59,586 nt of DNA from Candidatus Chloroploca sp. Khr17 (GCF_004138165.1 NZ_RYFF01000020.1:33982-93567); one strand, 5' to 3'. Counted from the first letter of the stretch, positions 32,001 to 54,956 are shown. Notes: generated by a model from the letters alone, not told the origin. Made by a program: numbers and translations.

Positions 32001-34742
32001 CTACCCGGTTGAACCGAGCCCATCCGCAATCGCGTTGACCGTCAGCAACAGCCGGGTGAGCAAGGTGGCGTCGACTTCAGTGCCTGTGGCCCGCTTGGTG
32101 CGCCACTCACCGAGCAACGTGACTTGCTGACGGTGCAACAGGCGTAGCCCCGGCGTACGAACCTGGATCATGGCATGGACGTTGGGCCGTCGCTGGTCCA
32201 GCGGTGCGCCATAGATCTCTTCCAGAAGCGTGACGGTGCGGTCGTACTCGGTCAAAATGATCTTCTCCAAGCGTTCGCGTAGTGCGCGCTCTTCGACAAG
32301 ATCGCTGTACCAGCCCATAACTTCAGTATCGGCGGTAGCGACGCTGGTAGCTGCGTTGCTGAGGATGTAGTGCAGGGGTGCCCAGGTAATCAGGTGTTCG
32401 CTCAGCGCCGCAAAAGCCGCTTGATCTTCACTTTTCAACCGTTCGAGGGCGCTTCCAACTCCATACCACCCAGGCAGAAAAAAGCGCGCCTGGCTCCAAC
32501 TAAAGACCCACGGGATCGCGCGCAAGTCAGCCAGGGTAGCCTGACCAGACCGACGGGCCGGGCGCGAGCCAATCCGGCTCTCTTCCAACACATCGACGGG
32601 CGTGGCCTGACGATAAAAGCGCAGGAATCCGTCACTACTCAGCAGCGTCGTATAGGCCTCACGACTCCAAGCGGCTAGGCGATCCATCGCCGGTTCGAGC
32701 GGATGGGTTGTCGCCGTACCGAACCGCTCACGCATTGTGGTACGGGTGACACCAGCCAGAAACAGCTCAAGGTTGTAGCTTGCCGTGACGGGGTTGGCAT
32801 ATTTTTGCGCAATCGTCTCACCCTGTTCGGTAATGCGCACATCGCCACCAACTGATCCGGCGGGTAGCGCCTTGAGGAAGCGATGCGTCGGCCCGGCCCC
32901 TCGACTGATCGTGCCACCGCGCCCGTGGAAAAAGCGAATCCGCACGCCCCGCGCCAGGCCGACGGCAGCGAGGGCCGCCTGAGCACGATAGAGCGCCCAC
33001 AGGCTCGCGATCAGGCCCCCATCTTTGTTACTGTCACTATAGCCAATCATCACCTGCTGGATAAGATCCGCCGCGCCGGTCTGGCGCCGTTGCTCTTCCA
33101 GACTGCGCTGGGTCATTGGATGATCGAGAAAGGCTGCAAGAATGCTCGGGCTGCGCTCGAGATCTTCAATCGTCTCGAAGAGGGGCACCACCGACAGCGG
33201 GCAGGCAAGACCATCCGGGGTCGCAACGAGCAAGCCGGTCTCACGCGCAAAGAGATAGACGGTGAGCAAGTCAGCGACATTGCGGGTCATGCTGACGATA
33301 AGCCCGCCCAGACCCGCCGCGCCATAGGTGTGCAAGGCAATCCGGATCGCCCGATAACTACTGAGGATCATATCGGCTTCGGTGCCGACGCCTGCTCGCG
33401 CACGGGTAAAAGGCCGTGGCGAAACGAGTTCGCGGGTCAACAGATCCATCCGACGTGCGACATCCCAGGTTGTCACATCATGATCAGCAAAACCGGCGGC
33501 AGCGAGCAATTGCGCAAGCGCACGGTCGTGAACCGCACTATTCTGGCGAATGTCGAGCCGCGCGAGGTGGAAGCCAAAGGTATGAACATTACGGATAACT
33601 GGTGTCACCAGATGCGCCACGAGGCTCCCTGCCCCGATCATCTCCAGGGACTGCGCGAGGATCTGCAGGTCGCGCACCAGTTCCTCGGCGCGCTGATAGA
33701 CGTGCGCCGCAGGAGCATCAGGGAGGCGTGCGAGCATCAGATTGATCCACTGACGCCACGGCTCATTGGGATTACGGGCAAGCGCGTGCGCCCCTCGTTC
33801 GCCCAATTGGGAGGCGGCGATCGTCATCTGATCGACCAAGAGCTGCGGGGCAGCCTGCAACTGATCAGAGAGACTCAAGTAGCTCGCCAGATCGCTCAAC
33901 TGGTCGTGGAGCAGACCAAGCGCCTGGCGGCGGAGCTCTGCAAGTGTCTCGGTTGTCACCTCGGCGGTCACCAGCGGATGCCCATCACGGTCGCCACCGA
34001 CCCAGGTACCAAACTGGAGCGACGGAAGGGCCTCGGGAGCCTGGAGCAGCGTCGGATTGAAACCAGCTGCTTGCCAAGCCTGGCGCACCCGTGCATCGAG
34101 CATAGGAAGAACGGAGGGAAAAACCGTCCGCAGATAATGAATAATATTGCGTCGCTCTGAAGCAACATCCGGCTTCGCGAGAAAGATCTCGCCGGTACGC
34201 CAGAGCGCAATCAGACGAATCACCGCCTCGTCACGGATCGCCTGCTGCTCATAGGGGGTCCAGTGCGGATTAGCGCGCTTGAGCAACAGCAGATAGAGAG
34301 CACGGTGATGTTCAAGCACCGTCGCACGTTTCGCCTCAGTCGGATGCGCCGTCAGCACAATCTCAACGCGCATCGTTGGCAACGCCGCAGCCAGCGCCGC
34401 CTCATCGAGGCCGTGGGCCTGTAACTGCGCCAACGCCTCACCCCAAAGCGCAGGCACCGCCGCGAGACCAGCGCGGGTCTCGGTCGTACGGCGATACTGT
34501 ACAGCAGCGCGTTGTTCAACCATACTCAACAACTGAAACGCGATCGAAAGCGCCTGCACCAACCGCTCGGGCGGCAAATCGGCGCGAGGAGGATCATCCT
34601 GCGGCGGCGTAATCCAGGGCAACACCCTAGCAAGATCCGGCTCACCAGAGTCAAGCAACGCCTCACGCAGACAATCCATCAGAAAAGAAAGCTCGTCGGA
34701 AAACGTCGCCGGATCAACGGTCGACAAATTCACCAGGGTCAT
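32001..34742 (-). CDS. ppc: Phosphoenolpyruvate carboxylase.
   Basis: ATG 34742 lies 8 nt after 'gggagga'. Motifs 'VLTAHPTE', 'GYSDSNKDGG', 'FHGRGGTISRGAGPTH', and C-terminus '...ADGLGSTG'. Confidence 0.93.
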   Translation of the reverse strand: MTLVNLSTVDPATFSDELSFLMDCLREALLDSGEPDLARVLPWITPPQDDPPRADLPPERLVQALSIAFQLLSMVEQRAAVQYRRTTETRAGLAAVPALWGEALAQLQAHGLDEAALAAALPTMRVEIVLTAHPTEAKRATVLEHHRALYLLLLKRANPHWTPYEQQAIRDEAVIRLIALWRTGEIFLAKPDVASERRNIIHYLRTVFPSVLPMLDARVRQAWQAAGFNPTLLQAPEALPSLQFGTWVGGDRDGHPLVTAEVTTETLAELRRQALGLLHDQLSDLASYLSLSDQLQAAPQLLVDQMTIAASQLGERGAHALARNPNEPWRQWINLMLARLPDAPAAHVYQRAEELVRDLQILAQSLEMIGAGSLVAHLVTPVIRNVHTFGFHLARLDIRQNSAVHDRALAQLLAAAGFADHDVTTWDVARRMDLLTRELVSPRPFTRARAGVGTEADMILSSYRAIRIALHTYGAAGLGGLIVSMTRNVADLLTVYLFARETGLLVATPDGLACPLSVVPLFETIEDLERSPSILAAFLDHPMTQRSLEEQRRQTGAADLIQQVMIGYSDSNKDGGLIASLWALYRAQAALAAVGLARGVRIRFFHGRGGTISRGAGPTHRFLKALPAGSVGGDVRITEQGETIAQKYANPVTASYNLELFLAGVTRTTMRERFGTATTHPLEPAMDRLAAWSREAYTTLLSSDGFLRFYRQATPVDVLEESRIGSRPARRSGQATLADLRAIPWVFSWSQARFFLPGWYGVGSALERLKSEDQAAFAALSEHLITWAPLHYILSNAATSVATADTEVMGWYSDLVEERALRERLEKIILTEYDRTVTLLEEIYGAPLDQRRPNVHAMIQVRTPGLRLLHRQQVTLLGEWRTKRATGTEVDATLLTRLLLTVNAIADGLGSTG

Positions 34743-34981
34743 AGGCACATCCTCCCGCAGTCAAACCGAGCGCAAAGGCACATCTCTCACGCTATGATGC
34801 CACATTCTGGTAGTTCATGCCAGGGGCATTTGCCTGGTGGGAGGGGCGGCAGGCACGAACAGAAGCTGACATCGCTGAGGTTGGAAGAGACCTGTTTCGT
34901 CGATTCGGCGCTGCACGAGAGTGAGTTGGATCTGGGACGAGTCATTCAAAGCCGAGCCAACGCAACAGTTGTTACGCTCCA

Positions 34982-36931: not shown

Positions 36932-37735
36932 TCAACGTGTTAAAGCGCGTTGAACCATTGCCGAAGGGCGCAGAGCTTGATCACTCTCGAGAAACGCCCG
37001 CGCCATCCGCATGGGTTGGTAGCGGCGCGAACCTACCACCACGACACTATCCTCAAGCGGATCCGCTAGATCCCAACGCCCCAGTCCATGACGTACCAGT
37101 ACCTCGCCGATGTAAGCACCAAATGTACGTACATTGGCTGTAAGCAGATCTTCATCCCGTAGGAATGTACGATGTTCATTGTCTACATTGAACTCGAAAC
37201 GTTCCAGGCTCTCGACGGAGTAGTCGAGAGCAAGATCTTCATAGAGTGCCGTACGAAAACGTTCAGCTAGGGTAGCCGGTTCGAGCTCTTCCGCATCCGT
37301 GTCTTCATCATACGTATCACCATTGAAGGCACGGTAGATGAGCTCAATGGTAGCTTGGAGGTGCGCTATCGTCTGAGTCACTGTTGCGGCCGTGAACGTT
37401 GGTAGTGGACGATCACAGATCAAGCAGAGGTCACGATCATGATCGAAAGATAGACATGCATCCACTAAGTCATTGTTCATTTGGCTCATTATCAATGCAA
37501 GGGGACTGATATCTTCCCCTTCCTCAGCCGCATACAAGGGCGTTATGCAAAAACGCACATACTCATCGCCAAGTGGCCCTATCTGGGGATATGCCATAAG
37601 ACGGAATGTGCCGCTCGTAGTAGGCCCAATCGGACACTCGATGTCGAAATAGATAATAGGTTGATCGCTATCAGGATCTTCAACGTCGTAGACAAGCCCT
37701 GCTGTGGTGAAAGCAGTCGTAAAAGATATAGACAC
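36932..37735 (-). CDS. Island operon gene 13: strongly acidic cytoplasmic protein, possibly a chaperone/immunity-like partner of the basic proteins.
   Basis: GTG 37735 is preceded by AGGAG ('taggagtaagcctGTG'), immediately after the stop of the upstream gene. Asp/Glu-rich runs include 'DVEDPDSD' and 'YDEDTDAEELEP'. The N-terminal half looks YbjN/chaperone-like by eye only. Confidence 0.65.
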   Translation of the reverse strand: MSISFTTAFTTAGLVYDVEDPDSDQPIIYFDIECPIGPTTSGTFRLMAYPQIGPLGDEYVRFCITPLYAAEEGEDISPLALIMSQMNNDLVDACLSFDHDRDLCLICDRPLPTFTAATVTQTIAHLQATIELIYRAFNGDTYDEDTDAEELEPATLAERFRTALYEDLALDYSVESLERFEFNVDNEHRTFLRDEDLLTANVRTFGAYIGEVLVRHGLGRWDLADPLEDSVVVVGSRRYQPMRMARAFLESDQALRPSAMVQRALTR

Positions 37736-37748
37736 AGGCTTACTCCTA

Positions 37749-38390
37749 TTACGGTATCTGACGAATTTCCACATTTTTACGCTTCGCGGCTGTAATACGC
37801 TGCTTGATTATCGCATTTTGTTCAGGTGTGGTGTTCTTTGGCTTTGGAACCGCGACAACAAGATTGCTATTCTTGCTGGATAAAGCGTTTAATTCGGGAT
37901 TTTTATTTGATTTAAACTTCTTGTCCTTATAAGATTTGACTTGTGATATCTTTCTGTTGAGATTTTTTTGATCAACACCAGCGATACCCTTTACCGGTCG
38001 ATAATTTTCAATCAATTCAAATTTAAATTTTTTCGGATCAGTACTCCGCTTTAGCACCCTAAGTGTGTCAACACGTTTTCTATTCTCAAGTGCTACTTCA
38101 GAGAAAACATCTCCGCGCTTAATTTGCTTATAGTTTGGCGGTGTTTTTCCCTGCAAAGTAGTTGCAGACTTCGGTTTGCGATTGTGTAATTTTGCATGGT
38201 AATTTGTGGAGATTTTGTTGAATTTATGTCCATTAGCTGTATTTCGCCGCAGTTGTGTTCGCTTAAGCTCATTTGACGAAGAGACATTGCGTGCGGCAGC
38301 TTTCATTTTTGTTTTGGAGATCGGAACGGAGATGCTACTTCTATTTACTTTGGGTGTGCCATGCGTAGATTTGCTGCCAACTTTTTTCAT
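37749..38390 (-). CDS. Island operon gene 12: extremely basic Lys/Asn/Arg-rich protein of unknown function. It is the lowest-GC gene in the window.
   Basis: SD 'aggggtg' before ATG 38390. 213 aa dominated by K/N/R/S/T ('KKFKFELIENYRPVKG', 'KSYKDKKFKSNKNPE'). In the 60-nt line starting at 37861 I count 18 G+C. Confidence 0.7.
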   Translation of the reverse strand: MKKVGSKSTHGTPKVNRSSISVPISKTKMKAAARNVSSSNELKRTQLRRNTANGHKFNKISTNYHAKLHNRKPKSATTLQGKTPPNYKQIKRGDVFSEVALENRKRVDTLRVLKRSTDPKKFKFELIENYRPVKGIAGVDQKNLNRKISQVKSYKDKKFKSNKNPELNALSSKNSNLVVAVPKPKNTTPEQNAIIKQRITAAKRKNVEIRQIP

Positions 38391-38410
38391 TTCACACCCC
38401 TATACATTCA

Positions 38411-38977
38411 TTACTTCTTACGCACAATCTTTGGTCTGCCCTGGAAACGTCCGAGCCGCCGCGCCTGTTCGATATGCTGTTCGTTGCGCTCTTGCATCTG
38501 TGCAGCTTCAAAATCGCGCAGGATCTCGTCGGGTTTCTGTAGTGGTTCGGCATGGGGCATAAACATGCTGCTGAGTGCTGCCAACCCCACGAGACCATCA
38601 ACTGTCTTCACCGCAGTGTAGGCTTTGGCCTGATTGAACTTGCCTTTGAACCAATTTAGTTTAGATATTTGATTCGGTGTGGGGGATTTTGGCTGATTCG
38701 AGCCACGAACAGTAGGGTGCTGCAGACCTCCTCGCACGTTGCGTGTTGGCAACGTACTGCTTGGCTTCGCCTTAACTTGTTTTAGTGGTGGCGTCCGAAC
38801 CTTTGATGTTGGGTGCTTCGCCAGTTTGCGTGTCGCTTGCTGCAACTTGACTGGTGTAACCCGCTGCCGGGCGGTTGTTGAAGCAACTGGTTGTAGAGCA
38901 CGTACTGGCGGCGTAGGCTTTGGGGTATTGGGGTTGCTCACACCTGCCCCACTTTTAGTACTCCGATTAACCTTCAT
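38411..38977 (-). CDS. Island operon gene 11: basic Pro/Thr/Lys/Arg-rich protein of unknown function.
   Basis: ATG 38977-38975 overlaps the TGA 38976-38974 of the upstream ATPase gene (ATGA coupling). The N-terminal ~110 aa are low-complexity and basic ('KPTPPVRALQ...KHPTSKVRTPPLKQVKAKP'). The C-terminus is helical ('DEILRDFEAAQMQERNEQHIEQARRLG'). Confidence 0.65.
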   Translation of the reverse strand: MKVNRSTKSGAGVSNPNTPKPTPPVRALQPVASTTARQRVTPVKLQQATRKLAKHPTSKVRTPPLKQVKAKPSSTLPTRNVRGGLQHPTVRGSNQPKSPTPNQISKLNWFKGKFNQAKAYTAVKTVDGLVGLAALSSMFMPHAEPLQKPDEILRDFEAAQMQERNEQHIEQARRLGRFQGRPKIVRKK

Positions 38978-41787
38978 GCGCCTGCTCCAATCAACATTTG
39001 CAGCACCTGGGCATCTACGGGTAAGCCCGAGTTGCGCATCCAATCAGCAGCCAAACGCAGGTAGACCCGTCGCACTTCGGCGTAGCGCGGGTGCGCACCA
39101 AATCGTGCCGTACAGATCTGCTCAATCTGGGTATGGTCCAGGGCACGATCTCCATAGCCCCCCAGAACATCTTCAATCGTTTCAGGCAAGCTATACCCAT
39201 CTTGTGCAAGCACCCACTTAGCTGCGGCATGGGGATCGTCCGGTAGGATGCTAACGGTCTGCACTTGGTTTGGCATCGGTGGCTGCCAGAGCGCCGCTGG
39301 CGGCATCTGCAACGGGCGGCGGGCCATCATCGCCTTCACGGCCTCATCGGAGTCATCAAAGATCGGGCGATCATCGGGCGTCTGAAAACGATCCAGGTAG
39401 TTGCCAACCTGCACGAAGATCGGGCGACTATCGGGGCCTCGTACAATCACTTGGCCCTGCCCGAGTGAGCGTACGTATTCGCGCTGACGCTCATTCAGGT
39501 TCATCACCTCACAGAAGAGCTTAAAGCTCTCCTGATCTTCGAGCCGATGCATGATTTTGAGGTTCGTATTGCCTAGCGCACCATTGACCAGTTGGGTTGG
39601 GATCTGCTCAGCGATCAAGATCCCTTCCCCAAACCCGCGCACCTCAGCCAAAATATTGGCGAAATCCTCTCCACCACGACTCCGTGCGTCAGCAAGATCT
39701 TCGCTACCCTTGTGTCCAGCCGACATAAGCCGATGGGCTTCTTCGATCAGAGTCATGTGCAGTTGTTTGCCGCGTTGTTCGGGTGGGAGGCGTTTGTAGC
39801 GGCTCTGCAATTCTTGGGTCAGTTGTACCAACAAAAAGGCCATAATCAGGGCGCTATCTTCGGGGGAGCCAACCCTTCCTAATTCCATGACGGTTGGCCG
39901 TGAGAGCACTACACTGAGCGGGGCTGGAGCCGTGGTATTGACAATTGTCCCTGCATTGAGCAGAAGATCACGCATGCGAATTTCGGCTGATTGGCGTACC
40001 CGGTCTTTGGCCTCCTCATCAAAGCCCGCCGTCATCAACTCGCTCACCGCAACGAGCGTCGTGTAGAACGCAGCCAAGGTGGGGGTGCCTACCCCCGGAT
40101 CGCCCCCCTTGCCCTGTTCGAGATTCCAACCTGCATCGGTATAGACCTGACGCAGGGCTGCGCGATAAATCGCTGGCAGAGGATCCCACATCGAGAAGGC
40201 GGCCATAAAACAGCGCATCAACAAACTGAGATGGGTCTTAAGCAAGATCCCCTCTGCCACGTAGAAGGGGTTGAAGCGGAAAGGCGTGGTGGTTTCATCA
40301 CCCAGCGTAAAAATTAGCAGATCGTCGGCCATTTGTGGGTCGGCCATGAGTAGCCGATAGTCCGGTTTGTCAATTGGGTACATCACCAGGAATGGTACCT
40401 GGTGGTCGGCCCAAAGTTGGGCCAGCATGTGCAGGCATGTGTTAGTTTTACCGCTTCCCGTAGCCCCTGCGATGAGACCGTGGCGGTTAAGGTCACGGAT
40501 CGGAATTTGCATATACTGGCCAGTACGCGTGCCACGATGGATGATCTCACCGAGGTTCAAACAGGGCACGTTGGTGAGCAGGCGATCGGTTGGCAAAACG
40601 AATGGCTCGTCGCGTACCTCAAGCCCGGGTAGATAACCACTCTCGGGGGGGATCGGCAGACGGAAGGCCCCCGCCGCTTGGTCGGTACTGACGAGATAGC
40701 GCAAGCGTACTGTCGCCTGATCAACGCGTGTTGGCCCCCAGGCTCCGTACTCAAGAAACGCAAAGTTATAACGTGCAATCGCCAGATCTTGATCATCCTT
40801 AGGGCTTTCGCTGGCCCATTGACGTGGCTCCGGCGTATTGTTTTGAATCAACTCGGAACCCAGCGCTTCCATTACATCATTAGGTGCATAATCCGATCCT
40901 ATCACTTGGATTTTTATGCGGAATAAATGATTTCTTTTGTTGATCAGAGGCATAAAGGTACGGGAAATATCATCAAAGCGTTCACGGCGATACAAATCAA
41001 ACCATGATTTGGACTCAACTTCTGCTGTGAGATTGCGATAACGTGAGAGCAGTAAGTTAATCTGGAGTAGCTCTTCGTGGAAGAGCACTGTTGGTCGCAA
41101 GCAGATGCTTGCGACACAGGTTTGCTCTTGTTGCACCAGCGTTTCTAAGAAGCGGCCAAAAGCAGAAGCATCAAAAACTGGACTAAAGGGATGTGGGAAG
41201 TAGCCAATGGCATCAGTACCTGCGTATGGATCAAAATCCTCAAACTTGCGAATCTCGACCAATTGGTTCATGCCTACCTGTTCAATGGGAATAGGTAACA
41301 TTGAACGCATGAAGTCGTCTTCGCCTAACGGCTCTAATGGGTAGTTGAAAGGATCTTCGAGAGGGTAGTGACTACGAAACTTGCACCAGAGCTGCCAGCA
41401 CAGATTTTTGGCGCGATTGCGGTTGGGATGGAAAGCCTTGCCAAGAAAGACAATCTCAATGGTTGGGCGATGTCCTGTCACTTGACTTGGTCGAGCAATA
41501 AACCGCAGATCGAAGGCGGCACTACCCTCGGCAATCATCCGAGCGTTGATCAAATCATTCAGGAAGCGGATTTGACGCAGCGTAATCAACCGAATACGAC
41601 TCAGTTCACCTCCACTGAGCGTACGCGTGAAATCGCTGGTTAAAAAACTAGGAATGAACGGCACCCGTGCTGCAAAGATAGCGTGCGCCCCCTGCTGGCG
41701 AGTGACTTGCACCCCACTACCCCCCCAACTCTCGGCATAGTGGAACTCATCGGGATTGCTGACGTAGATGAACGGCTCTTGCAACAT
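38974..41787 (-). CDS. Island operon gene 10: HerA/FtsK-superfamily (DUF87-like) P-loop ATPase with a ~430-aa N-terminal domain of unknown function.
   Basis: SD 'aggaagg' lies 8 nt before ATG 41787. Walker A 'GLIAGATGSGKTN' at 40444-40467. Walker B/sensor 'LHMTLIEEAHRL'. 'ILIAEQIPTQL...NTNLKIMHRL' is typical of HerA-like NTPases. Confidence 0.75.
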   Translation of the reverse strand: MLQEPFIYVSNPDEFHYAESWGGSGVQVTRQQGAHAIFAARVPFIPSFLTSDFTRTLSGGELSRIRLITLRQIRFLNDLINARMIAEGSAAFDLRFIARPSQVTGHRPTIEIVFLGKAFHPNRNRAKNLCWQLWCKFRSHYPLEDPFNYPLEPLGEDDFMRSMLPIPIEQVGMNQLVEIRKFEDFDPYAGTDAIGYFPHPFSPVFDASAFGRFLETLVQQEQTCVASICLRPTVLFHEELLQINLLLSRYRNLTAEVESKSWFDLYRRERFDDISRTFMPLINKRNHLFRIKIQVIGSDYAPNDVMEALGSELIQNNTPEPRQWASESPKDDQDLAIARYNFAFLEYGAWGPTRVDQATVRLRYLVSTDQAAGAFRLPIPPESGYLPGLEVRDEPFVLPTDRLLTNVPCLNLGEIIHRGTRTGQYMQIPIRDLNRHGLIAGATGSGKTNTCLHMLAQLWADHQVPFLVMYPIDKPDYRLLMADPQMADDLLIFTLGDETTTPFRFNPFYVAEGILLKTHLSLLMRCFMAAFSMWDPLPAIYRAALRQVYTDAGWNLEQGKGGDPGVGTPTLAAFYTTLVAVSELMTAGFDEEAKDRVRQSAEIRMRDLLLNAGTIVNTTAPAPLSVVLSRPTVMELGRVGSPEDSALIMAFLLVQLTQELQSRYKRLPPEQRGKQLHMTLIEEAHRLMSAGHKGSEDLADARSRGGEDFANILAEVRGFGEGILIAEQIPTQLVNGALGNTNLKIMHRLEDQESFKLFCEVMNLNERQREYVRSLGQGQVIVRGPDSRPIFVQVGNYLDRFQTPDDRPIFDDSDEAVKAMMARRPLQMPPAALWQPPMPNQVQTVSILPDDPHAAAKWVLAQDGYSLPETIEDVLGGYGDRALDHTQIEQICTARFGAHPRYAEVRRVYLRLAADWMRNSGLPVDAQVLQMLIGAGA

Positions 41788-41806: not shown

Positions 41807-43195
41807 CTAAGCGTAAGCGGTCATAACGGCTTCGACCAGCACAAGTAGATCGCACTGGGGCGTCCAGTTAGCGAGCGGTTCAGGCATGAAGCGCTGCTCT
41901 TGTCCATCGAACTCTACAAACATAGTTGGAGCCTCTTGGGGATACCGAGCCGTACAACTAAAATAGATGCCGAGGGTGTGCCCAAGCTGATCACGCAGGC
42001 TGACACTGACCAGGAAGACGTTCGCATCTTCGTGTAGGGCGGCGTTTAGTCCCTGTGCTAGCATTGCGCCTATCTCGTTGCGCAGGCGTTCGCCAGCACC
42101 TGCGCCGCTGAAGCGTGCGACGGGTGACGGTAAAGCGGGAACAGTCACACCATACATCCCTCCGAGAGTAGCTGTAGGTGGGGCTACGGCCTGTCCGGTG
42201 AGCGCCCCAAGCAACACCTGTTGAAGGTCATTGCTACCTGCCGCCGATGTCCCCATCGGCAGCATCCCCGCCTTCGCCATCTCGGTCAGGGCCAGTAAGC
42301 GTTGTCCATCTGTTTGCGCTTTATCACCAAAGACACGCGTGTACATGTCTGGATTGGTCAGCAAGAGATATTGCGGTGTCAATTCAATCATGCGCGAGAT
42401 ATTCATCTGTGTGAGCGCCTGTGCCATCGCAATCTCGGCCTGCGAGTTCGCCTGGATCTTCGCGACCTCGGCATCAGTTTGCGCCTCGCGGGTACGCATA
42501 TAAACGTCACGTAATTTCTTGTCCAGTTCTTCAGCACCCGCAATACGCGTGATCTGGACGTTCGAGACTCGTATTCCCAAGTTGTCTTCAATGCCGCGTT
42601 GCTGCAATTGCTGTGCAACCATGTAACCTGCATGACCGCCCGCCTGGAAATCCTGGTATTTAGCAATTGATGCAGTGATCGAACGAATTGATTCCATCAC
42701 CGTATCATAGAGCCTCGTGAGCGGCTGTTCGACGACAAGCGCAACGTGTTCAGGATGAATTATCTGATAACTGACTGCAACATCGAGATCAACTGGCAAT
42801 GCAATCTTCTCACCCTGGGGCGGCTGATAGAAAATCGTAAACTCCTTCGTCGTTGTTATATCCAGCGTGCGCTCACGCGTATTGACCACGTAGAGATCAA
42901 TGCGATTCATCACGGGAAACGAGAGCGCGTGATAACTCCCTTCTTGCAGCACTTCGAGCACTCTGCCATCCCCGGTCACAACGACGGTAGTGCCAGCCAT
43001 AACCCGAAAGATACGAAAGATACTGGTGAAGACATTGTTATGAACACGTACTGGACCAAAGACAAGGGGTGAATTACTTAGATCAGCAAACGGTTCACGC
43101 AGGAAGTCATCAAGCGAGCCCTGTCTGCTCGCTGCTTCCTTATCGTTAACGTGACGACGGTTTAGGGGCATGGTCTGGTCACGGTTAGTTCCCAT
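41807..43195 (-). CDS. Island operon gene 9: SPFH/Band-7 (flotillin/prohibitin-like) domain fused to a C-terminal UEV/RWD-like (non-catalytic E2-fold) domain.
   Basis: ATG 43195 follows 'ggaaggag'. The SPFH-like core runs from 'VVVTGDGRVLEVLQEGSYHA...' through 'VDLDVAVSYQIIHPEHVALVV' and 'GIRVSNVQITRI' to a coiled-coil 'AQTDAEVAKIQANSQAEIAMAQA'. C-terminus 'LGIYFSCTARYPQEAPTMFVEF...NWTPQCDLLVLVEAV'. Confidence 0.7.
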   Translation of the reverse strand: MGTNRDQTMPLNRRHVNDKEAASRQGSLDDFLREPFADLSNSPLVFGPVRVHNNVFTSIFRIFRVMAGTTVVVTGDGRVLEVLQEGSYHALSFPVMNRIDLYVVNTRERTLDITTTKEFTIFYQPPQGEKIALPVDLDVAVSYQIIHPEHVALVVEQPLTRLYDTVMESIRSITASIAKYQDFQAGGHAGYMVAQQLQQRGIEDNLGIRVSNVQITRIAGAEELDKKLRDVYMRTREAQTDAEVAKIQANSQAEIAMAQALTQMNISRMIELTPQYLLLTNPDMYTRVFGDKAQTDGQRLLALTEMAKAGMLPMGTSAAGSNDLQQVLLGALTGQAVAPPTATLGGMYGVTVPALPSPVARFSGAGAGERLRNEIGAMLAQGLNAALHEDANVFLVSVSLRDQLGHTLGIYFSCTARYPQEAPTMFVEFDGQEQRFMPEPLANWTPQCDLLVLVEAVMTAYA

Positions 43196-43229
43196 ACGAG
43201 CCAACTCCTTCCTGAGGCGCACAAGGTTG

Positions 43230-44453
43230 TTAGGTTTGATTGGGTAATATGCTAAGCTGAATGACCGGAAGATCAGCCAAGATGTCCGAAGCTTCGGCGG
43301 CTGCTTCTTGTTCACTCATCTTGAGGCTTTCGGCTACGAAAGCTGAATAGTTGCACACCGGACATTGAGCATTCTTCGGCACATCAATGAAGAGGCTCTC
43401 TAACGGCTGTTGAAAGATCCACTCCGCACGATTACCGAAGAGGAGCCAGTTCGTCGGCAGATCCGGTAGCGTGTTCTGCTTATCGCGCAGAAGCGTTAGT
43501 AACGCCATACGCGCCATTAACAGCGCAATCATACCCACATCAACCCCTAGACCTGGCTGAGCCAGTAATTCTTCCATACGTGCGGGATCTTCGTAACCCA
43601 GCGAGAAATCCTGTGTAGCGGCAGGGGGAGGGCCAAAAAAATCGGCAATGACGGTCTGAAAACAGGCGTAGCAAGCACCCTCGGAGGGAATTGCACGGAA
43701 GATATCACCCCCAAAGGCGCGATTGTAGGCTGCGGCATAGATAGCCGGGATCCCTCTTGGCCAGCACACGGTATTGACCGCCAACTTTGAGTCTTCATGA
43801 TCAGTAGCGACCACAACCAGATCACACCCGGTAACAATGGTAGCTAGTTGATCCTCATGGCCTAACACGTTCAACTCGTAGGTCTCGACGGTAATTGCGG
43901 GCGAGATGTCGTAGAGCAGATCGCGCAGGGCACGGGTCTTATAGCGCCCGATATCGTGGAGGCCACACGCATGACGTGCAATATTGTGAACTTTGAGCCG
44001 ATCAAAATCCACCAACCGCATCTGCCCTACTCCGCAACGAGCAAGCTGGCTCGCCACCACTGAACCACCTGAGCCGAGGCCAATCACGGCAATGCACGTA
44101 TTGGCGAGGCTGCTCACTTCAAAGATGCCGTGCATACGTGAGGCATAGTCAGTATGCAAACGGATGACGTTGCAGGAAATCGTTTCCCATCCAGTAGCCT
44201 TGCTTTGCCAACCAGCAACCTGATCTGGCAACTCATCGTCAATGTTGAGGACTATTTCTTCCGGGGCCAGTTCTGTTGTTGGCGGTACAGGGCTGCGATA
44301 CCAGCGACCTAGGTACGCACCGGACGCCTCAAGGATTCCCCTGATTTGCACGACATCGCCATCGTCATAACGGTAGCCGTAGAGCTTGCCCTCTGTCTGT
44401 GCAGCAGTACCAAGCAACTGGTTAATCAAGCTATCAGGAACGGTAAGAAACAT
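43230..44453 (-). CDS. Island operon gene 8: ThiF/MoeB/E1-like adenylyltransferase with an N-terminal degenerate JAB-like segment.
   Basis: SD 'ggag' lies between the upstream TAG and ATG 44453. Rossmann motif 'IAVIGLGSGGS' at 44061-44081. 'RLVDFDRLKVHNIARH' is the E1 Arg-finger/Asp region. 'GACYACF'. The N-terminal 115 aa align by eye to the two JAB proteins, but with HKH replaced by YRS. Confidence 0.8.
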   Translation of the reverse strand: MFLTVPDSLINQLLGTAAQTEGKLYGYRYDDGDVVQIRGILEASGAYLGRWYRSPVPPTTELAPEEIVLNIDDELPDQVAGWQSKATGWETISCNVIRLHTDYASRMHGIFEVSSLANTCIAVIGLGSGGSVVASQLARCGVGQMRLVDFDRLKVHNIARHACGLHDIGRYKTRALRDLLYDISPAITVETYELNVLGHEDQLATIVTGCDLVVVATDHEDSKLAVNTVCWPRGIPAIYAAAYNRAFGGDIFRAIPSEGACYACFQTVIADFFGPPPAATQDFSLGYEDPARMEELLAQPGLGVDVGMIALLMARMALLTLLRDKQNTLPDLPTNWLLFGNRAEWIFQQPLESLFIDVPKNAQCPVCNYSAFVAESLKMSEQEAAAEASDILADLPVIQLSILPNQT

Positions 44454-44464
44454 CGGCAGACTCC

Positions 44465-45865
44465 CTATTGCAGTGGCTTCCCTTGATCTGGTTGAACCGA
44501 TGTTGGAAATACATAGCTGCGGTTGAACTCAGCGCAGAGGTCAGCCGCACTACGACAGGCCAGTTCAACTTGACGTACGATCAGACGACCTTGAAATTCG
44601 AGCAACTCACCAATGCGCTGGGATGGACGTGGTTGGGTCAAGGTTTCAAGCACATTGCGCACTACATCACGTAGGCGTATATGGGTACGCCAACCACCAG
44701 GAAAGAGTTGTTCAGTCACAATACGTACTACGTTATCATCACTCAACACGACTTGGACTTCAGGCGCTTGCTGCGGAAACTGTGAACCAGGATCAAGCTT
44801 AATAGCTTTGATCTGTAGCGGCTCTGTTTGCGCAACTGGCGCGACATTTACCATCCCCTCCGGCGTTTGCTGGGGTGCTGGGATTATCTCAGGGATATTC
44901 AGGGTCATTAGGGGCGGATGCGTAAAGGTAATCGTATACCAAACTCCGTTATCATCGCGCGTATGTACCTCCAGATGCGCCCCAGATCGCAAGGTCTGGC
45001 AGTACTGTTCCAGATCCTGTTGTTCGCGTGCAAAGCGGCCAGGAAGGGGAGGGATTGGCGGAATGCTTGCATCAGGTGGTGAACCTGAGAAAGGTGGTAT
45101 TTCAGGCGGCACGAAATCAGTCGCTGAACGACGAGTGTAAGAGGAACTTTCTAGATCGATGACCTCCAGGGTATCAGGAGGTTCCACATCTAGTGTGTAA
45201 GGTGAGGTATGTGGCTGCACCGGAGGATGGGAATGCAGATTGGCCCGGGCAGCACGGAGATCGGCCGGGTTGACTCCCCAGCGATCAGCAGTTCCTGATG
45301 TTGCGTGAGGAGGTTTTGGCGCAACTGTCTGTTGTTCTAGCGCAACCAGACCATCCAACAAGACGCGAAGGTCGCCTTCGACAAGCTCACATGGCACAGG
45401 CGTCGCACTCATCGTCTCACGGGGATAGTAGTGCCCATGGAGCAGAAATGTACCATCTTCAATGGTTACAAGTGGGGTGAAGATACCGTGGGGCAAATGA
45501 TAGGACTCATCGCTCAAGATATCGACCACCTGAAGCGTATCACCCGAACTTGGCCGATGCAAACCTGGCGGATGCTTATGCCACTCACCAACATAATCAA
45601 CGTGGTAGGTGGCGTAGTGCTGACGCCACGTTTCCAGGTCGCGTTGGCGAGCAAGTGCATCTGGAGCATAGGTATGCGCCCGTCGGTCGGCATTGCTACC
45701 AGGACCAGAGGCTGCCACAACGACGAGGTGGAGTCCATCGGGGAGTTGGAACATACGTCCAACCAGGATGCCGCCGGTCTCACGTCCAGGGCTCGTACAT
45801 GCCTCGTCGTACATCCGCTGATAGACATCTTGTTGGGCCAGATAGACGGTATTTGGTACTGGCAT
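44465..45865 (-). CDS. Island operon gene 7: JAB/MPN+ (JAMM) metallopeptidase fused to a C-terminal UEV/RWD-like domain.
   Basis: ATG 45865 lies one nt after the E2 stop codon (TAA 45869-45867). 'ETGGILVG'. An intact JAMM motif 'HKHPPGLHRPSSGD' (H-x-H-x7-S-x2-D) at 45539-45580. C-terminus 'IKAIKLDPGSQFPQQAPEVQVVL...GGWRTHIRLRDVVRNVL'. Confidence 0.85.
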   Translation of the reverse strand: MPVPNTVYLAQQDVYQRMYDEACTSPGRETGGILVGRMFQLPDGLHLVVVAASGPGSNADRRAHTYAPDALARQRDLETWRQHYATYHVDYVGEWHKHPPGLHRPSSGDTLQVVDILSDESYHLPHGIFTPLVTIEDGTFLLHGHYYPRETMSATPVPCELVEGDLRVLLDGLVALEQQTVAPKPPHATSGTADRWGVNPADLRAARANLHSHPPVQPHTSPYTLDVEPPDTLEVIDLESSSYTRRSATDFVPPEIPPFSGSPPDASIPPIPPLPGRFAREQQDLEQYCQTLRSGAHLEVHTRDDNGVWYTITFTHPPLMTLNIPEIIPAPQQTPEGMVNVAPVAQTEPLQIKAIKLDPGSQFPQQAPEVQVVLSDDNVVRIVTEQLFPGGWRTHIRLRDVVRNVLETLTQPRPSQRIGELLEFQGRLIVRQVELACRSAADLCAEFNRSYVFPTSVQPDQGKPLQ

Positions 45866-45866
45866 G

Positions 45867-46322
45867 TTAGTCTGCCTCAATTCCAGGCCAATAGGTTTTC
45901 CCTGACTCAAGCCAGGTTTCGTAGGCAAAGAACCAAGCGGCGGCTACCGCGATCACGGTTGCTGCCGTGGTTTGCTGGGCAAACGAACGATCACCAGGGT
46001 AGTAGAGGCATAGGTGTCCATCGTTATACTGGTGCTTGAGGCGGCCTGCTTGCTCGTCCTTCCAGACGGTAATCGCTGGGTTAATGGGATAAACTTTAGG
46101 CGGATCATCGGGAAAGTTGTCAGGATAGTAGAGTGCAATCTCATAGCGCCTTTCGCGATTACTCTCTAAGGTGCCGATCCAGACCAACTGGTTACTATCA
46201 CGCACGAGCTGAAACTGGGGAAAGCGCGTTTCCATAGCTCTCTTTTCCAGTACGAGTCGTGCGGGATTAAGGTCATACCACGCTGCATACCAGCGCATCG
46301 GACGGAGAATAGTTTGGCCCAT
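45867..46322 (-). CDS. Island operon gene 6: E2/UBC-like ubiquitin-conjugating-type enzyme with a candidate catalytic Cys.
   Basis: 'YEIALYYPDNFPDDPPKVYPINP' is the E2 flap motif (46098-46115). 'KHQYNDGHLCLYYPG' has the Cys codon at 46008-46010 (H..N..G.lC, as in E2 HPN...C). A C-terminal helix 'TVIAVAAAWFFAY' follows. Confidence 0.8.
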   Translation of the reverse strand: MGQTILRPMRWYAAWYDLNPARLVLEKRAMETRFPQFQLVRDSNQLVWIGTLESNRERRYEIALYYPDNFPDDPPKVYPINPAITVWKDEQAGRLKHQYNDGHLCLYYPGDRSFAQQTTAATVIAVAAAWFFAYETWLESGKTYWPGIEAD

Positions 46323-46387: not shown

Positions 46388-46588
46388 TTATGCTCGTGTA
46401 AATAGGGCAAACCAGCGCTGCGGTTTAAGCACTGTCTTGCTCTGTGGATCGGTCTGCGCGACCTTGGGATCTTCTGGGACGTGCATCTTGCCATCCGGAC
46501 TGACGACAACTTCCTGTGCGGTGGCAAGACGCTTCTTAAGTTCTTCCAGGCTGGATTGTGGGCTACGAGGGGGTTGTGGCGTGCTCAT
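46388..46588 (-). CDS. Island operon gene 5: 66-aa hypothetical protein, probably disordered, occupying the position where a Ubl gene would be expected.
   Basis: ATG 46588 is preceded by a strong SD ('caggaggtacaccaccATG'). Sequence: MSTPQPPRSPQSSLEELKKRLATAQEVVVSPDGKMHVPEDPKVAQTDPQSKTVLKPQRWFALFTRA. There is no C-terminal Gly and no obvious beta-grasp pattern. Confidence 0.55.
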   Translation of the reverse strand: MSTPQPPRSPQSSLEELKKRLATAQEVVVSPDGKMHVPEDPKVAQTDPQSKTVLKPQRWFALFTRA

Positions 46589-46640: not shown

Positions 46641-47357
46641 TTAGATAATACGTTCGGTATATTGTGCCCAAACCGACTGTTGCGTCGGTGGCTGGTTCGT
46701 GACTTGAGCATAAGAAATGAGGCCCAAAAGGTTGTTGACCACTGCCAGCAGTGAACTATTGCCATTCCAACTGCGCAGAACAGACGAATCAAGTGCGAGG
46801 TGATGTTCGGCTAGTTCACCACAGGCATCAAACCCGAGCATGGTGGCAATGAGCTGCGGTGCGATAATTGGATAGTCATCCGTACAAATGAGATGGATCG
46901 AGACATTCTCCCCATCACTCCGTGCCACCCGGATCTGAACACAGTACTCTTCGACATCCGGGCGCCCGGCGAGGCTCACCGCCTCGTAACCATTACTGCG
47001 TAACTTCGCTACTTCTTGCGTCAAACGTTGCACCACATTTATTGGGGTAACATCAATCACTTGGCGACTTGCAACTGGGGTTCCGGCTGGTGTAAAACCA
47101 CCCGCGCCGGAACTCCAGGTTGGTACCTGCGATGAAAGCGTCGAAGTGTCTTCATGGATTGGCATTGGAGGCGGGCGCATGGTGGGACTAGCCGGTGGGA
47201 GAATGAACGCTTTACCCTGTTTTGATGTTACTTCTGATTGGCTCGTTGTGGCGCGTCGCCCACTCCCGCCTCGTTGGAGTACGAAGACAACGAGGATCAG
47301 GACGACGAGAACGAGGACGCCCCCACCAGCAATGATCAGCAGAATTGATGTATCCAA
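46641..47357 (-). CDS. Island operon gene 4: N-terminal TM anchor, Pro-rich linker and UEV/RWD-like domain.
   Basis: TTG start at 47357 follows GGAGG, which overlaps the upstream TAG ('TAGGAGGcgtcTTG'). TM 'ILLIIAGGGVLVLVVLILVVFVL'. 'VSIHLICTDDYPIIAPQLIATM...SWNGNSSLLAVVNNLL'. Confidence 0.7.
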   Translation of the reverse strand: MDTSILLIIAGGGVLVLVVLILVVFVLQRGGSGRRATTSQSEVTSKQGKAFILPPASPTMRPPPMPIHEDTSTLSSQVPTWSSGAGGFTPAGTPVASRQVIDVTPINVVQRLTQEVAKLRSNGYEAVSLAGRPDVEEYCVQIRVARSDGENVSIHLICTDDYPIIAPQLIATMLGFDACGELAEHHLALDSSVLRSWNGNSSLLAVVNNLLGLISYAQVTNQPPTQQSVWAQYTERII

Positions 47358-52900: not shown

Positions 52901-53189
52901 TGATCAAGGTGGTCAGGCTTGAACGCAGGGAAGCAGCGCACGCGGGCATGGTGACCGTGGTCGCTCGGTGAACGAACGAGATTCTTCAGTTCTTGGTTCG
53001 CATATGTACCGCAATTGCAGCTTCGGGCCGTGAACCGCGCGGCTTGTGGGCAGCGAAGGCTACCTGCGTGGCCTGATCCAGCCGACGAAGGTCGGCTTTG
53101 CCATGCGTCGCCGCCGCGTTGACGCCGACGGTCTGGGCGGATGGGTGCGTTCTGCCGGTTGGGGAATTTGCGCGCCTGGCTTTAGTGTC

Positions 53190-53201
53190 GTATCATGATA
53201 C
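53190..53201 (+). promoter_or_regulatory. 12-bp perfect palindrome abutting the hicA start codon (candidate HicB operator).
   Basis: 'gtatcatgatac' at 53190-53201, with the ATG at 53203. Confidence 0.3.
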
Positions 53202-53202
53202 T

Positions 53203-53469
53203 ATGGAGCTAAGCAGTCGCCACCGCAAGATGCTACGGGCCGTTTTTGCTGATCCCGTTCGCGCTGACGTGAAGTGGGCGGACGTTGAGACGCTGCTGCA
53301 TGCGCTTGGTGTCGACATTGGCGAAGGAAGAGGGTTACGCGTCCGGATCCAACTCAACGGTGTGCGCGCCGTCTTTCATCGACCGCATCCTATCCCGGAT
53401 ACCGACAAAGGTGCGCTTAGGTCATTACGACGGTTCCTAATAGAAGCAGGTGTGAAGCCGGAGGAATGA
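53203..53469 (+). CDS. hicA: Type II toxin-antitoxin system toxin, HicA family.
   Basis: 88 aa from ATG 53203. 'HRKMLRAVFADPVRADVKWADVETLLHALG...FHRPHP' matches the HicA-family pattern as I remember it. It lies directly upstream of the hicB-like gene. Confidence 0.75.
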   Translation: MELSSRHRKMLRAVFADPVRADVKWADVETLLHALGVDIGEGRGLRVRIQLNGVRAVFHRPHPIPDTDKGALRSLRRFLIEAGVKPEE

Positions 53470-53472
53470 GCC

Positions 53473-53793
53473 ATGCTGCAGTATAAGGGCTATACGGGTC
53501 GCGTTGAGCTTGATGATGAGGCTGGCATTTTCCATGGAGAGGTGCTCGACCTCCGTGATGTGGTCACCTTCCAGGGAAGGAGTGTGGACGAGTTAGTCCA
53601 AGCCTTTCGTGACTCGATCGATGACTATCTCGACTTCTGCAAAGAACGTGGCGAGGAACCGGATAAGCCTTTCACGGGACGGTTGATGCTTCGCCTGCCG
53701 CCTGAATTGCATCGGAAGGCCTATGTTCGGGCGCAGCGTGAGGGCAAGAGTTTGAACCAGTGGATTAGTGATAAGCTGGCGGAGGTCAGCTAA
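53473..53793 (+). CDS. hicB: Type II toxin-antitoxin system antitoxin, HicB family (with a C-terminal RHH-like DNA-binding tail).
   Basis: SD GGAGGA sits within the hicA 3' end. 'MLQYKGYTGRVELDDEAGIFHGEV...FQGRSVDELVQAFRDSIDDYLDFCKERGEEP' and 'GRLMLRLPPELHRKAYVRAQREGKSLNQWI'. Confidence 0.85.
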   Translation: MLQYKGYTGRVELDDEAGIFHGEVLDLRDVVTFQGRSVDELVQAFRDSIDDYLDFCKERGEEPDKPFTGRLMLRLPPELHRKAYVRAQREGKSLNQWISDKLAEVS

Positions 53794-54152: not shown

Positions 54153-54956
54153 ATGAAGAGTGCACCTATGGACTATCAGCATCCCTCCGTCGATCAGATG
54201 ACGTTGCACAAGATAATTGCCCAGTGCAATGCTGAATTTGGGTGGGGGCTCAGTGCAAGTGAGCTTGAGTCTTATGCGCAGTCGCTTGTGCGCTGTCTGC
54301 CTGAGCATGTCGATCAGGTGAAGCTTACGCAGATGGTGCTGTATTATCATCAGGATCATCAGCAGGTTGCGGCGCTGCAAAATAGATCCCATCCAGACCA
54401 TGATCAGTTCTGGACGATCTGGTTGCATGACGTGGCGCAGGTGATTAACCGGGGTAAGATGGCGTCACTTGGCGATCATGCGCTTGATGCTGATGATCTT
54501 GCCCAGACGGCGCTCGATGAAATGTCACGCTCGCTCAAGAATTTCAAATACCAGAGCAGCCTGAAGACTTGGGTGTATAGATTAGTTGTGCAGACTTCCC
54601 GCCGGATGCTGCGCGATCTTCGTGCGAAGAAGCGTCCGCGTGGGGTTGCGTCGTTAGATGAGTTGCCTGAGGAGGCGTTGGCGCTCTGTGATGCTTGTGA
54701 GCCCGATGAAGAAGCATGTGGCGAGATGTTGATTGGGTTGACGTGCGCGTTGCTTGAGCGGATCAAAGATCAACGTATGGCTCAGATCTTCTATCTTGCC
54801 GCCGTTGATGACCTCTCGACTGCGCAGATCGGCAACATCGTGCATCTCCATCCGTCACGGGTGCGGGCGTTGTTGCAGCAGGCTCGCACGTTGTTGCAAG
54901 AACGCCCGGAAATTCAGGCGTGGCTCGCGGATCACGAAGCTTCCCCGTTCGTCTAA
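54153..54956 (+). CDS. ECF-type RNA polymerase sigma-70 family factor with a ~100-aa N-terminal extension.
   Basis: Region 2-like 'LAQTALDEMSRSLKNFKYQSSLKTWVYRLVVQTSRRMLRD'. Region 4 HTH 'LSTAQIGNIVHLHPSRVRALLQQARTLLQ'. The start is uncertain (ATG 54153 or 54168, no clear SD). Confidence 0.75.
   Translation: MKSAPMDYQHPSVDQMTLHKIIAQCNAEFGWGLSASELESYAQSLVRCLPEHVDQVKLTQMVLYYHQDHQQVAALQNRSHPDHDQFWTIWLHDVAQVINRGKMASLGDHALDADDLAQTALDEMSRSLKNFKYQSSLKTWVYRLVVQTSRRMLRDLRAKKRPRGVASLDELPEEALALCDACEPDEEACGEMLIGLTCALLERIKDQRMAQIFYLAAVDDLSTAQIGNIVHLHPSRVRALLQQARTLLQERPEIQAWLADHEASPFV

Follow-up and report, generated by a model that had tools for sequence, protein, structure and literature searches.

What does a protein that joins an SPFH domain to a ubiquitin-conjugating-enzyme (E2)-like domain do in a bacterial operon which also encodes an E1, an E2 and JAB peptidases? 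This question is raised by a locus of Candidatus Chloroploca sp. Khr17 lying within a stretch of 59,586 nucleotides (GCF_004138165.1 NZ_RYFF01000020.1:33982-93567), hereafter the window, whose positions are counted from its first nucleotide. An earlier note, made from the sequence alone, had read the gene at 41807 to 43195 as an SPFH/Band-7 scaffold fused to a ubiquitin E2 variant (UEV)/RWD-like domain, a combination new to its reader, and had suggested that the fusion tethers conjugation machinery to membrane assemblies. The combination is real and conserved, and neither the fusion of SPFH to a ubiquitin-conjugating (UBC) fold, nor its linkage to a HerA-like ATPase, nor this type of operon was found described in the literature searched, to which Burroughs et al. 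2011 did not belong. The encoded product, here termed SPFH-dead-E2, is an anchor-less SPFH protein with a flexible linker of about 30 residues and a C-terminal UBC-fold domain, arranged as follows.

41807..43195, minus strand: SPFH-dead-E2 gene, 462 amino acids plus stop
Residues 1-60: N-terminal hydrophilic region
Residues 61-220 (42536-43015, minus strand): SPFH domain
Residues 221-333 (42197-42535, minus strand): helical/coiled-coil region
Residues 334-365 (42101-42196, minus strand): Pro/Gly/Ala-rich linker, predicted local distance difference test (pLDDT) score below 50
Residues 366-462 (41810-42100, minus strand): UBC-fold domain

The minus-strand open reading frame extends over 41807..43315, and the ATG at 43195, from which the 462-residue product is translated, is preceded 9 nucleotides 5' by GGAAGGAG and lies 34 nucleotides beyond the stop codon (43230-43232) of the ThiF/E1 gene; all homologues share the start M-x-T-N-R. 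An alternative GTG start at 43315 was rejected, as it would overlap the E1 gene and finds no support among homologues, the ribosome binding site belonging to the ATG at 43195. The product is 100% identical to the NCBI entry 'SPFH domain-containing protein [Candidatus Chloroploca sp. Khr17]', and the HerA-like gene starts 19 nucleotides beyond its stop.

The central SPFH domain and the helical/coiled-coil region behind it, as read in the earlier note, are borne out by both sequence profiles and structure prediction. Pfam Band_7 (PF01145) matches residues 65-249 with an E-value of 2.7e-8 (34.5 bits against a cut-off of 23.6 bits) and is matched in 32 of the 37 family members, while the family profile, when compared with PDB sequences, retrieved HflK (4.5e-8), the Pyrococcus (PH) stomatin (1e-6) and QmcA (2.6e-6). 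The full-length AlphaFold model, a monomer prediction with a pLDDT of 70 based on a 10-sequence alignment, was matched by Foldseek to erlin, stomatin, prohibitin, HflK/C, QmcA and the major vault protein (MVP) at E-values of 6e-9 to 6e-5, and these alignments span 270-310 columns, thus including the post-SPFH helical region, in which helices are predicted at residues 221-262, 266-280, 282-290, 296-308 and 322-333. The membrane-microdomain role which had been attached to the SPFH domain was not upheld: no 19-residue window of the protein reaches a Kyte-Doolittle value of 1.6, of 30 relatives examined, about 28 likewise showed no transmembrane (TM) helix or hydrophobic hairpin, and Pfam scans of all operon products revealed no FtsH or NfeD neighbour. 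In two long relatives (P0017, located at L014 7435-9567, and P0022) the SPFH-dead-E2 body is preceded by a fused set of six to eight N-terminal TM helices, an argument for a site of action at the membrane.

The C-terminal segment had been predicted to adopt a UBC-like fold, and residues 356-462, when modelled alone with nine homologues, indeed gave a confident model (pLDDT 90, predicted template modelling score 0.80) with the topology of a helix, three strands, the YPQEAP loop, two strands and two helices. YPQEAP corresponds to residues 418-423, precisely the positions 41927-41944 to which it had been assigned, and is followed by NWTPQCDLLVLVEAV. Foldseek searches with this model returned confident matches to FANCL only; the sequence profile of the domain matched an E2 at 6.4e-5 and the FANCL central domain at 2.8e-4, and phmmer with the single protein against the PDB found FANCL alone, at a marginal E-value of 0.68. 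No Pfam match to residues 356-462 was obtained at E<=1, and among the relatives 7 of 37 matched Pfam RWD (PF05773) at E<=0.01 (best 2.6e-4) without meeting the gathering threshold. The Y/F-P-x-x-x-P motif between strands 3 and 4 is present, with Y418, P419 and P423 showing little or no variation among 37 relatives and the four paralogues, and the W-[ST]-P motif of E2s is retained. Alignment by hhalign with the operon's own E2 covered only the part from helix 1 to YPxxxP (85%, E-value 6e-6), and the E2 segment HLC(105)LYYPGD has no counterpart in the C-terminal domain. The segment of about 14 residues between strand 4 and W-T-P contains no conserved His, Asn or Cys that could correspond to an HPN-type loop or catalytic cysteine, and Cys448 is not conserved among relatives. 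Since the HPN loop and the catalytic cysteine are absent, the domain is a catalytically dead E2 of the UEV/RWD type, for which the label 'UEV/RWD-like' is fair.

A second cysteine of this domain, Cys414 (41954-41956), which lies four residues before YP (Y-F-x-C-x-x-x-Y-P), is kept in more than 90% of a family otherwise 20-30% identical, and has an equivalent in the 238- and 269-residue paralogues listed below, with two family members and three paralogues lacking it. In UbcH5 and Ubc13 this position is presumably occupied by a hydrophobic residue. Cys414 was rejected as a catalytic residue on account of these absences and because it is located in strand 3 and not in the E2 active-site loop; its conservation is striking, and its role is probably structural.

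A profile search of 1.84e9 representative proteins yielded 70 matches, at least 40 of which carry both halves, a number so small that generic SPFH proteins are evidently not picked up by the family profile. Named members belong to the Chloroflexales and Anaerolineae, the remainder being metagenomic. In a word-indexed protein search the broad family profile recovered at least 14 proteins and the profile of the dead-E2 domain returned none; the 13-sequence alignment used in the related-loci search recovered 3 genomes, and no relative was found in the viral contigs scanned. The gene order of the window recurs in Oscillochloris (locus L001), an Anaerolineae metagenome-assembled genome (L003) and a metagenomic contig (L009), being composed of JAB and dead-E2 membrane proteins, a 61-66-residue protein, E2, JAB, E1, SPFH-dead-E2 and the HerA-like ATPase. 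The HerA-like gene, which the earlier note did not mention, is the constant partner of the fusion: it is adjacent in the window, L001, L003, L007, L009/L010, L012, L013 and L014, and three genes away in L006 and L015, with identities across loci of 37-74% for the ATPase and 23-65% for the SPFH-dead-E2 protein.

The remaining genes differ from locus to locus. In L007 (37% identical), genes for a CHAT protease and Pepco precede SPFH-dead-E2 and the HerA-like gene, and E1, E2 and JAB are absent; Pepco, a toxin that forms pores, is activated by the protease next to it (bioRxiv 10.1101/2025.11.14.688446). L013 has unrelated genes upstream of the fusion and the HerA-like gene downstream, and in L014 the TM-fused SPFH-dead-E2 and the HerA-like gene have a STAND-type NTPase and transposases as neighbours. 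In the most divergent clade (23% identical; L004-L006 and L015), an HSP70-like gene and genes for double-zinc-ribbon proteins flank the fusion; the HerA-like gene lies three genes downstream, with an Endonuclea_NS_2 toxin-domain protein (1.9e-33 in L015) and a YezG-like immunity protein (6.7e-8 in L015) encoded after it. The fusion is, accordingly, kept in at least four loci without a nearby E1, E2 or JAB (L007, L013, L014 and L015), and because the SPFH-dead-E2 and HerA-like pair persists in these, the pair is the constant element and the conjugation enzymes represent one of several interchangeable modules. SPFH-dead-E2 is, in summary of these comparisons, a conserved family with a conserved ATPase linkage. 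L007 further harbors, at 9-629 and upstream of CHAT-Pepco, a second, truncated SPFH-type gene. Its product is almost the same as SPFH-dead-E2 in the helical region but has another, beta-rich domain at the C-terminus; to judge from this example, the scaffold may be able to exchange its C-terminal module.

The operon in which the fusion resides in the window comprises the following further genes.

38974..41787, minus strand: HerA/FtsK-like P-loop ATPase, 937 amino acids; Walker A GATGSGKT, Walker B LIEEAH
43230..44453, minus strand: ThiF-type E1, akin to the E1 part of Cap2 of CBASS, an antiphage signalling system based on cyclic oligonucleotides; PADLOC E1-E2 model 5.7e-41
44465..45928, minus strand: JAB/MPN peptidase (Cap3-like) with a probable insert-bearing dead-E2-like C-terminal domain, 487 amino acids
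45867..46322, minus strand: active-type E2, 151 amino acids; conserved HLCLYYPGD with Cys105; PADLOC CBASS-type E2 1.9e-24
46388..46588, minus strand: conserved 66-amino-acid protein, LEELKKRL...DG...P-x-DP-x-VAQ...KP-x-RW[FY] plus a short variable tail
46641..47357, minus strand: single-pass membrane protein with a C-terminal paralogous dead-E2, 238 amino acids
47366..49150, minus strand: N-terminal dead-E2/RWD, one TM helix, then a TPR-containing region, 594 amino acids
49208..50017, minus strand: membrane protein with three to four TM helices and a C-terminal paralogous dead-E2, 269 amino acids
50021..52735, minus strand: second JAB peptidase plus dead-E2, one TM helix and a long helical/Ala-Gln-rich region, 904 amino acids
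36932..39043, minus strand: three genes downstream of the ATPase (210, 213 and 280 amino acids), namely
first, minus strand: basic 210-amino-acid protein, conserved in Oscillochloris
second, minus strand: Lys-rich 213-amino-acid protein with a weak PD-(D/E)xK nuclease-toxin match (CDI_toxin_EC869_like, 1.5e-3)
third, minus strand: 280-amino-acid protein, conserved in Oscillochloris (L001)

The dead-E2 domain of the fusion has relatives throughout this operon. Its profile, with E-values computed for Z=1e6, matched the 238-residue (1.3e-9), 269-residue (2.4e-7), 904-residue (8e-7) and 594-residue (1e-6) proteins, all four of which are membrane proteins, and hhalign alone found the 487-residue JAB protein, as a match to the domain's second half (78%, 1.9e-5). 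The operon-wide E2-variant signature that had been claimed for the locus consequently holds for four proteins by profile and for this fifth by hhalign. Including the active E2, the operon encodes six or seven UBC-fold domains, of which five to six are dead copies, and the paralogues beyond the fusion itself are confined to loci with E1, E2 and JAB. The 594-residue protein also matches Pfam RWD at 3.1e-3, with 18.1 bits against a cut-off of 22.8 bits. In the 594- and 904-residue proteins the dead-E2 (accompanied by JAB in the latter) is located on one side of the single TM helix, with a large TPR-containing or helical, Ala/Gln/Thr-rich region on the far side; with their topology taken from charge distribution only, these two proteins look like transmembrane sensors.

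Both Walker motifs of the HerA-like ATPase are intact, as read directly from the sequence; the protein contains no TM segment and is distant from solved HerA proteins, with a best PDB sequence E-value of about 2e-3. Its C-terminus (GAGA) was considered as an activated end and rejected, as it is not conserved in L001 or L003. The JAB proteins match PADLOC JAB models at 2e-15 to 8e-18, and an orthologous E2 carries the Pfam E2-CBASS tag. PADLOC matches were limited to E1, E2, JAB and HerA-type components; no CD-NTase was among them, the sole match to a cyclase model (the E2 protein against PDLC00816) falling at positions 422-537 of 542, outside the cyclase domain, and no cyclic-nucleotide effector was found in the operon. 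SPFH-dead-E2 itself has no match in PADLOC, NCBIfam or PHROGs. Each of the four E1/E2/JAB-type loci has the gene for the 61-66-residue protein directly upstream of that for E2; this small protein is not recognisable as ubiquitin-like, and a ubiquitin-family Pfam match was obtained neither for it nor for any other operon product, no structure-based search for a beta-grasp fold having been made.

At the position of the 213-residue protein, Oscillochloris encodes an unrelated UPF0102 nuclease-like protein (36932-38390 of the window versus L001 14722-16209), and this position looks like a swappable nuclease effector slot. Downstream genes of nuclease type are, across the loci, Endonuclea_NS_2 (L015), UPF0102 (L001) and the weak match resembling a contact-dependent inhibition toxin in the window. 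The stretch 36932-39043 has the lowest guanine-plus-cytosine (GC) content of the window (0.48 compared to about 0.60 in the flanks); the GC content of the operon lies below that of its flanks, and its genes are tightly coupled translationally.

Structurally characterised SPFH proteins assemble into rings or cages, HflK/C being known to enclose FtsH hexamers, and RWD and UEV domains are docking modules that form pairs among themselves or take ubiquitin or peptides as ligands, RWD pairing occurring in kinetochore and FANCL complexes. Because of these two properties, SPFH-dead-E2 may be viewed as an oligomeric scaffold for the HerA-like motor whose tethered dead-E2 domains provide docking sites, a reading to which we attribute about an even chance. 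The SPFH-plus-helix part would oligomerise into a ring or cage presenting many dead-E2 copies on flexible tethers, and the HerA-like hexameric motor would have this ring as its scaffold, in analogy with HflK/C around FtsH. Ring and motor would then stand at the centre of a conflict system (of defence or toxin type) with nuclease-like output genes, as which, to judge by its genes, this Chloroflexota locus looks. The dead-E2 domain would serve as a docking module for exchangeable input modules, those encountered being E1/E2/JAB with TM-RWD proteins and the small protein (the window, L001, L003 and L009), CHAT plus Pepco (L007), HSP70-like plus double-zinc-ribbon proteins (L004-L006 and L015) and a STAND-like NTPase (L014). 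In the version of Chloroploca, Oscillochloris and Anaerolineae, the input would have three parts: the enzymes (Cap2/Cap3-like E1, E2 and two JABs), the 61-66-residue protein, and the four dead-E2 membrane proteins, each predicted to carry its dead-E2 copy on the cytoplasmic side. Pairing of like domains or docking to E1/E2, possibly involving the 66-residue protein, would allow the soluble ring and its ATPase to reach the membrane sensors and conjugation enzymes.

Several observations weigh against this scaffold-and-docking proposal. The full-length model is moderate only, for the reasons of score and alignment depth given above, and the post-SPFH helices are shorter and more broken (the first comprising 42 residues) than those of HflK/C or stomatin, such that a closed cage is not assured. 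All structure predictions concern monomers, and the ring as well as the SPFH-HerA and RWD-RWD contacts are deduced. In the loci without E1, E2 and JAB no partner for the dead-E2 domain was identified; docking is, for this domain, the simplest reading and not the sole one. The assignment to defence rests on gene content only, PADLOC having no model for SPFH-dead-E2, and the nuclease match of the 213-residue protein lies below the Pfam cut-off.

The adaptor role put forward in the earlier note, in which a UEV-type domain binds a modifier or E2~modifier non-covalently and so tethers E1, E2 and JAB to an SPFH membrane microdomain, draws on the UEV and E2 relatives among the UBC-fold matches of the domain, on the E1 gene lying directly upstream of the fusion in every E1-containing locus, and on the part aligning with the operon E2 being the N-terminal half including helix 1, the E1-binding face of E2s. 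We nonetheless consider it rather unlikely, since the fusion is kept in at least four loci which lack these enzymes, no ubiquitin-like protein was detected in the operon with Pfam, and a protein without TM helix or hairpin cannot alone define a membrane microdomain. Conservation in the absence of E1, E2 and JAB indicates that tethering the conjugation machinery is not the primary purpose of the dead-E2 domain, whereas its docking to dead-E2s or to E1/E2 is plausible within the window operon. A different output is conceivable as well: EssC, an FtsK/HerA-like ATPase, exports toxins in type VII secretion, and the ATPase of this locus might by the same token export polymorphic nuclease toxins in an apparatus for toxin export or contact-dependent competition, with SPFH-dead-E2 as a membrane-proximal scaffold or chaperone platform, and the system would then not be one of anti-phage defence inside the cell. 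Such a role could accommodate the toxin-immunity gene pair of L015, the YbjN/TY-Chap1 secretion-chaperone-like protein of L003, the nuclease-like genes that differ at one position between the window and Oscillochloris in a low-GC stretch, and the several membrane proteins encoded by the operon; yet the ATPase is without a TM segment, neither signature proteins of secretion systems nor signal motifs were found, and CHAT-plus-Pepco and STAND NTPase neighbours are typical of intracellular immunity. We judge export to be unlikely, and note that it concerns the output of the system and is compatible with a scaffold role for SPFH-dead-E2.

Enzymes of the Cap2/Cap3 class conjugate the C-terminus of a partner protein and not a ubiquitin-like protein (PMC10097602), and with E1, E2 and JAB of this class encoded here and the fusion gene directly after E1, SPFH-dead-E2 could itself be the substrate, its own C-terminus being activated and ligated, or the target modified, in the manner of the CD-NTase of type II CBASS. 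This is very unlikely, as the C-termini are not conserved (AYA, AYV, AYS, AFS, AY, AYQ, YYE, YWE, FG and others), end in a structured helix instead of a flexible Gly/Ala tail, and belong to a fusion which also occurs without E1 and E2. Least credible of all is an ordinary housekeeping SPFH protein, i.e., a membrane-protease regulator akin to HflK/C or stomatin that happens to be encoded in this operon, with a C-terminal domain acquired as lineage decoration and having no role specific to the system, to which the Band_7 match and source annotations such as 'regulator of protease activity HflC' might point. This reading is disfavoured to the extent of being extremely improbable: the family profile retrieves just 70 proteins in 1.84e9 and excludes generic SPFH proteins, the TM anchor and NfeD and FtsH neighbours are absent, Chloroflexales, Anaerolineae and metagenomes share the gene order, and the C-terminal domain is common to five other operon proteins.

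Returning to the scaffold-and-docking proposal, its closest parallels are found among HflK/C-FtsH, QmcA-YbbJ and the erlin, prohibitin and stomatin cages, which share the SPFH domain plus helical region and provide the best profile and fold matches; as in HflK/C-FtsH, the SPFH gene is located beside that of a hexamer-type P-loop ATPase. In contrast to HflK/C-FtsH and QmcA-YbbJ, the N-terminal TM anchor, NfeD and FtsH are absent here, the C-terminal cap segment of SPFH cages is replaced by the linker and UBC-fold domain, and the ATPase is of the HerA/FtsK class and not an AAA+ protease. The dead-E2 domain differs from known UEV/RWD domains (the double RWD of FANCL, the RWD of GCN2 and RWDD proteins, the UEV of Mms2 and TSG101, and the UEV-like domain of VPS37A) in being bacterial and SPFH-fused, in keeping W-T-P, and in its near-invariant cysteine four residues before YP. 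Inactive UBC-fold domains within bacterial E1/JAB operons are known from the '6e' polyubiquitin-like operons, whose inactive E2/RWD-like domains were proposed to bind the modifier (Iyer, Burroughs & Aravind 2006, PMC1779556). Unlike those operons, with their poly-ubiquitin-like proteins and JAB-E1 fusion, the present one has separate, Cap2/Cap3-like E1, E2 and JAB and no detected ubiquitin-like protein, and it contains the dead-E2 domain five to six times, along with an SPFH fusion and a HerA-like ATPase.

As in type II CBASS, the E1, E2 and JAB are closest to Cap2/Cap3 models, but CD-NTase and cyclic-nucleotide effector are missing, E1 and E2 are separate genes, and the two JABs are fused to other domains. 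The association of a HerA-class ATPase with effector genes recalls HerA defence systems (Sir2-HerA and DUF4297-HerA), from which the locus is set apart by a very divergent ATPase and the absence of Sir2 and DUF4297. In the modular conflict systems of multicellular bacteria, Band7-like domains are regarded as multimerising scaffolds, and shared adaptor domains link the components (Kaur et al. 2020, PMC7159879); the exchangeable inputs observed here (protease plus Pepco, STAND and HSP70) and the filamentous Chloroflexota hosts are in keeping with such systems. The SPFH-dead-E2 partner and the set of dead-E2 paralogues are not described in the papers on HerA defence or in that of Kaur et al. 2020.

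SPFH cages are currently seen as membrane-anchored organisers of proteases and channels, and a soluble SPFH family with a tethered dead E2, genetically locked to a HerA-class motor, would extend this picture to bacterial conflict systems. The operon is, moreover, unusual in combining Cap2/Cap3-like enzymes with neither a CD-NTase nor a detected ubiquitin-like protein, in pairing one active with five or six inactive UBC-fold domains, and in encoding a conserved small protein where the modifier gene usually sits. For a family this rare, whose function we infer, the operon provides a concrete, testable case for E2-variant domains as adaptors outside eukaryotes, and a core accepting several input modules may serve filamentous Chloroflexota generally as a scaffold of modular immunity. 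In a more detailed form, which is distinctly unlikely as a whole, SPFH ring and HerA-like hexamer would make up a cage-and-motor, a P-loop counterpart of HflK/C-FtsH, with the crown of dead-E2 domains as its landing platform. The Cap2/Cap3-like enzymes would here operate without a ubiquitin fold, conjugating, or being recruited by, the 61-66-residue helix-hairpin protein in a Pup-like manner; this peptide module would also occur on the CHAT protease of the E1-less variant, and seven UBC-fold paralogues (one active and six dead) would link membrane sensors to nuclease output.

Outside the operon, a HicA toxin (3.9e-7)/HicB antitoxin (1.4e-21) pair is encoded just upstream at 53098-53793 on the plus strand, followed at 54153-54956 by an extracytoplasmic function-type sigma factor, a homologue of which is found beside the Oscillochloris operon too. 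The left half of the window (34-30030, plus strand) is occupied by very large surface-type proteins unrelated to SPFH-dead-E2, including a Kelch/beta-helix protein (1870 amino acids), a VWA plus fn3 protein (1418 amino acids), a PPC/CARDB protein (1384 amino acids) and a TIG plus peptidase C13 protein (756 amino acids), and among their genes stand housekeeping genes for the E1 of 2-oxoglutarate dehydrogenase and for phosphoenolpyruvate carboxylase (32001-34748).

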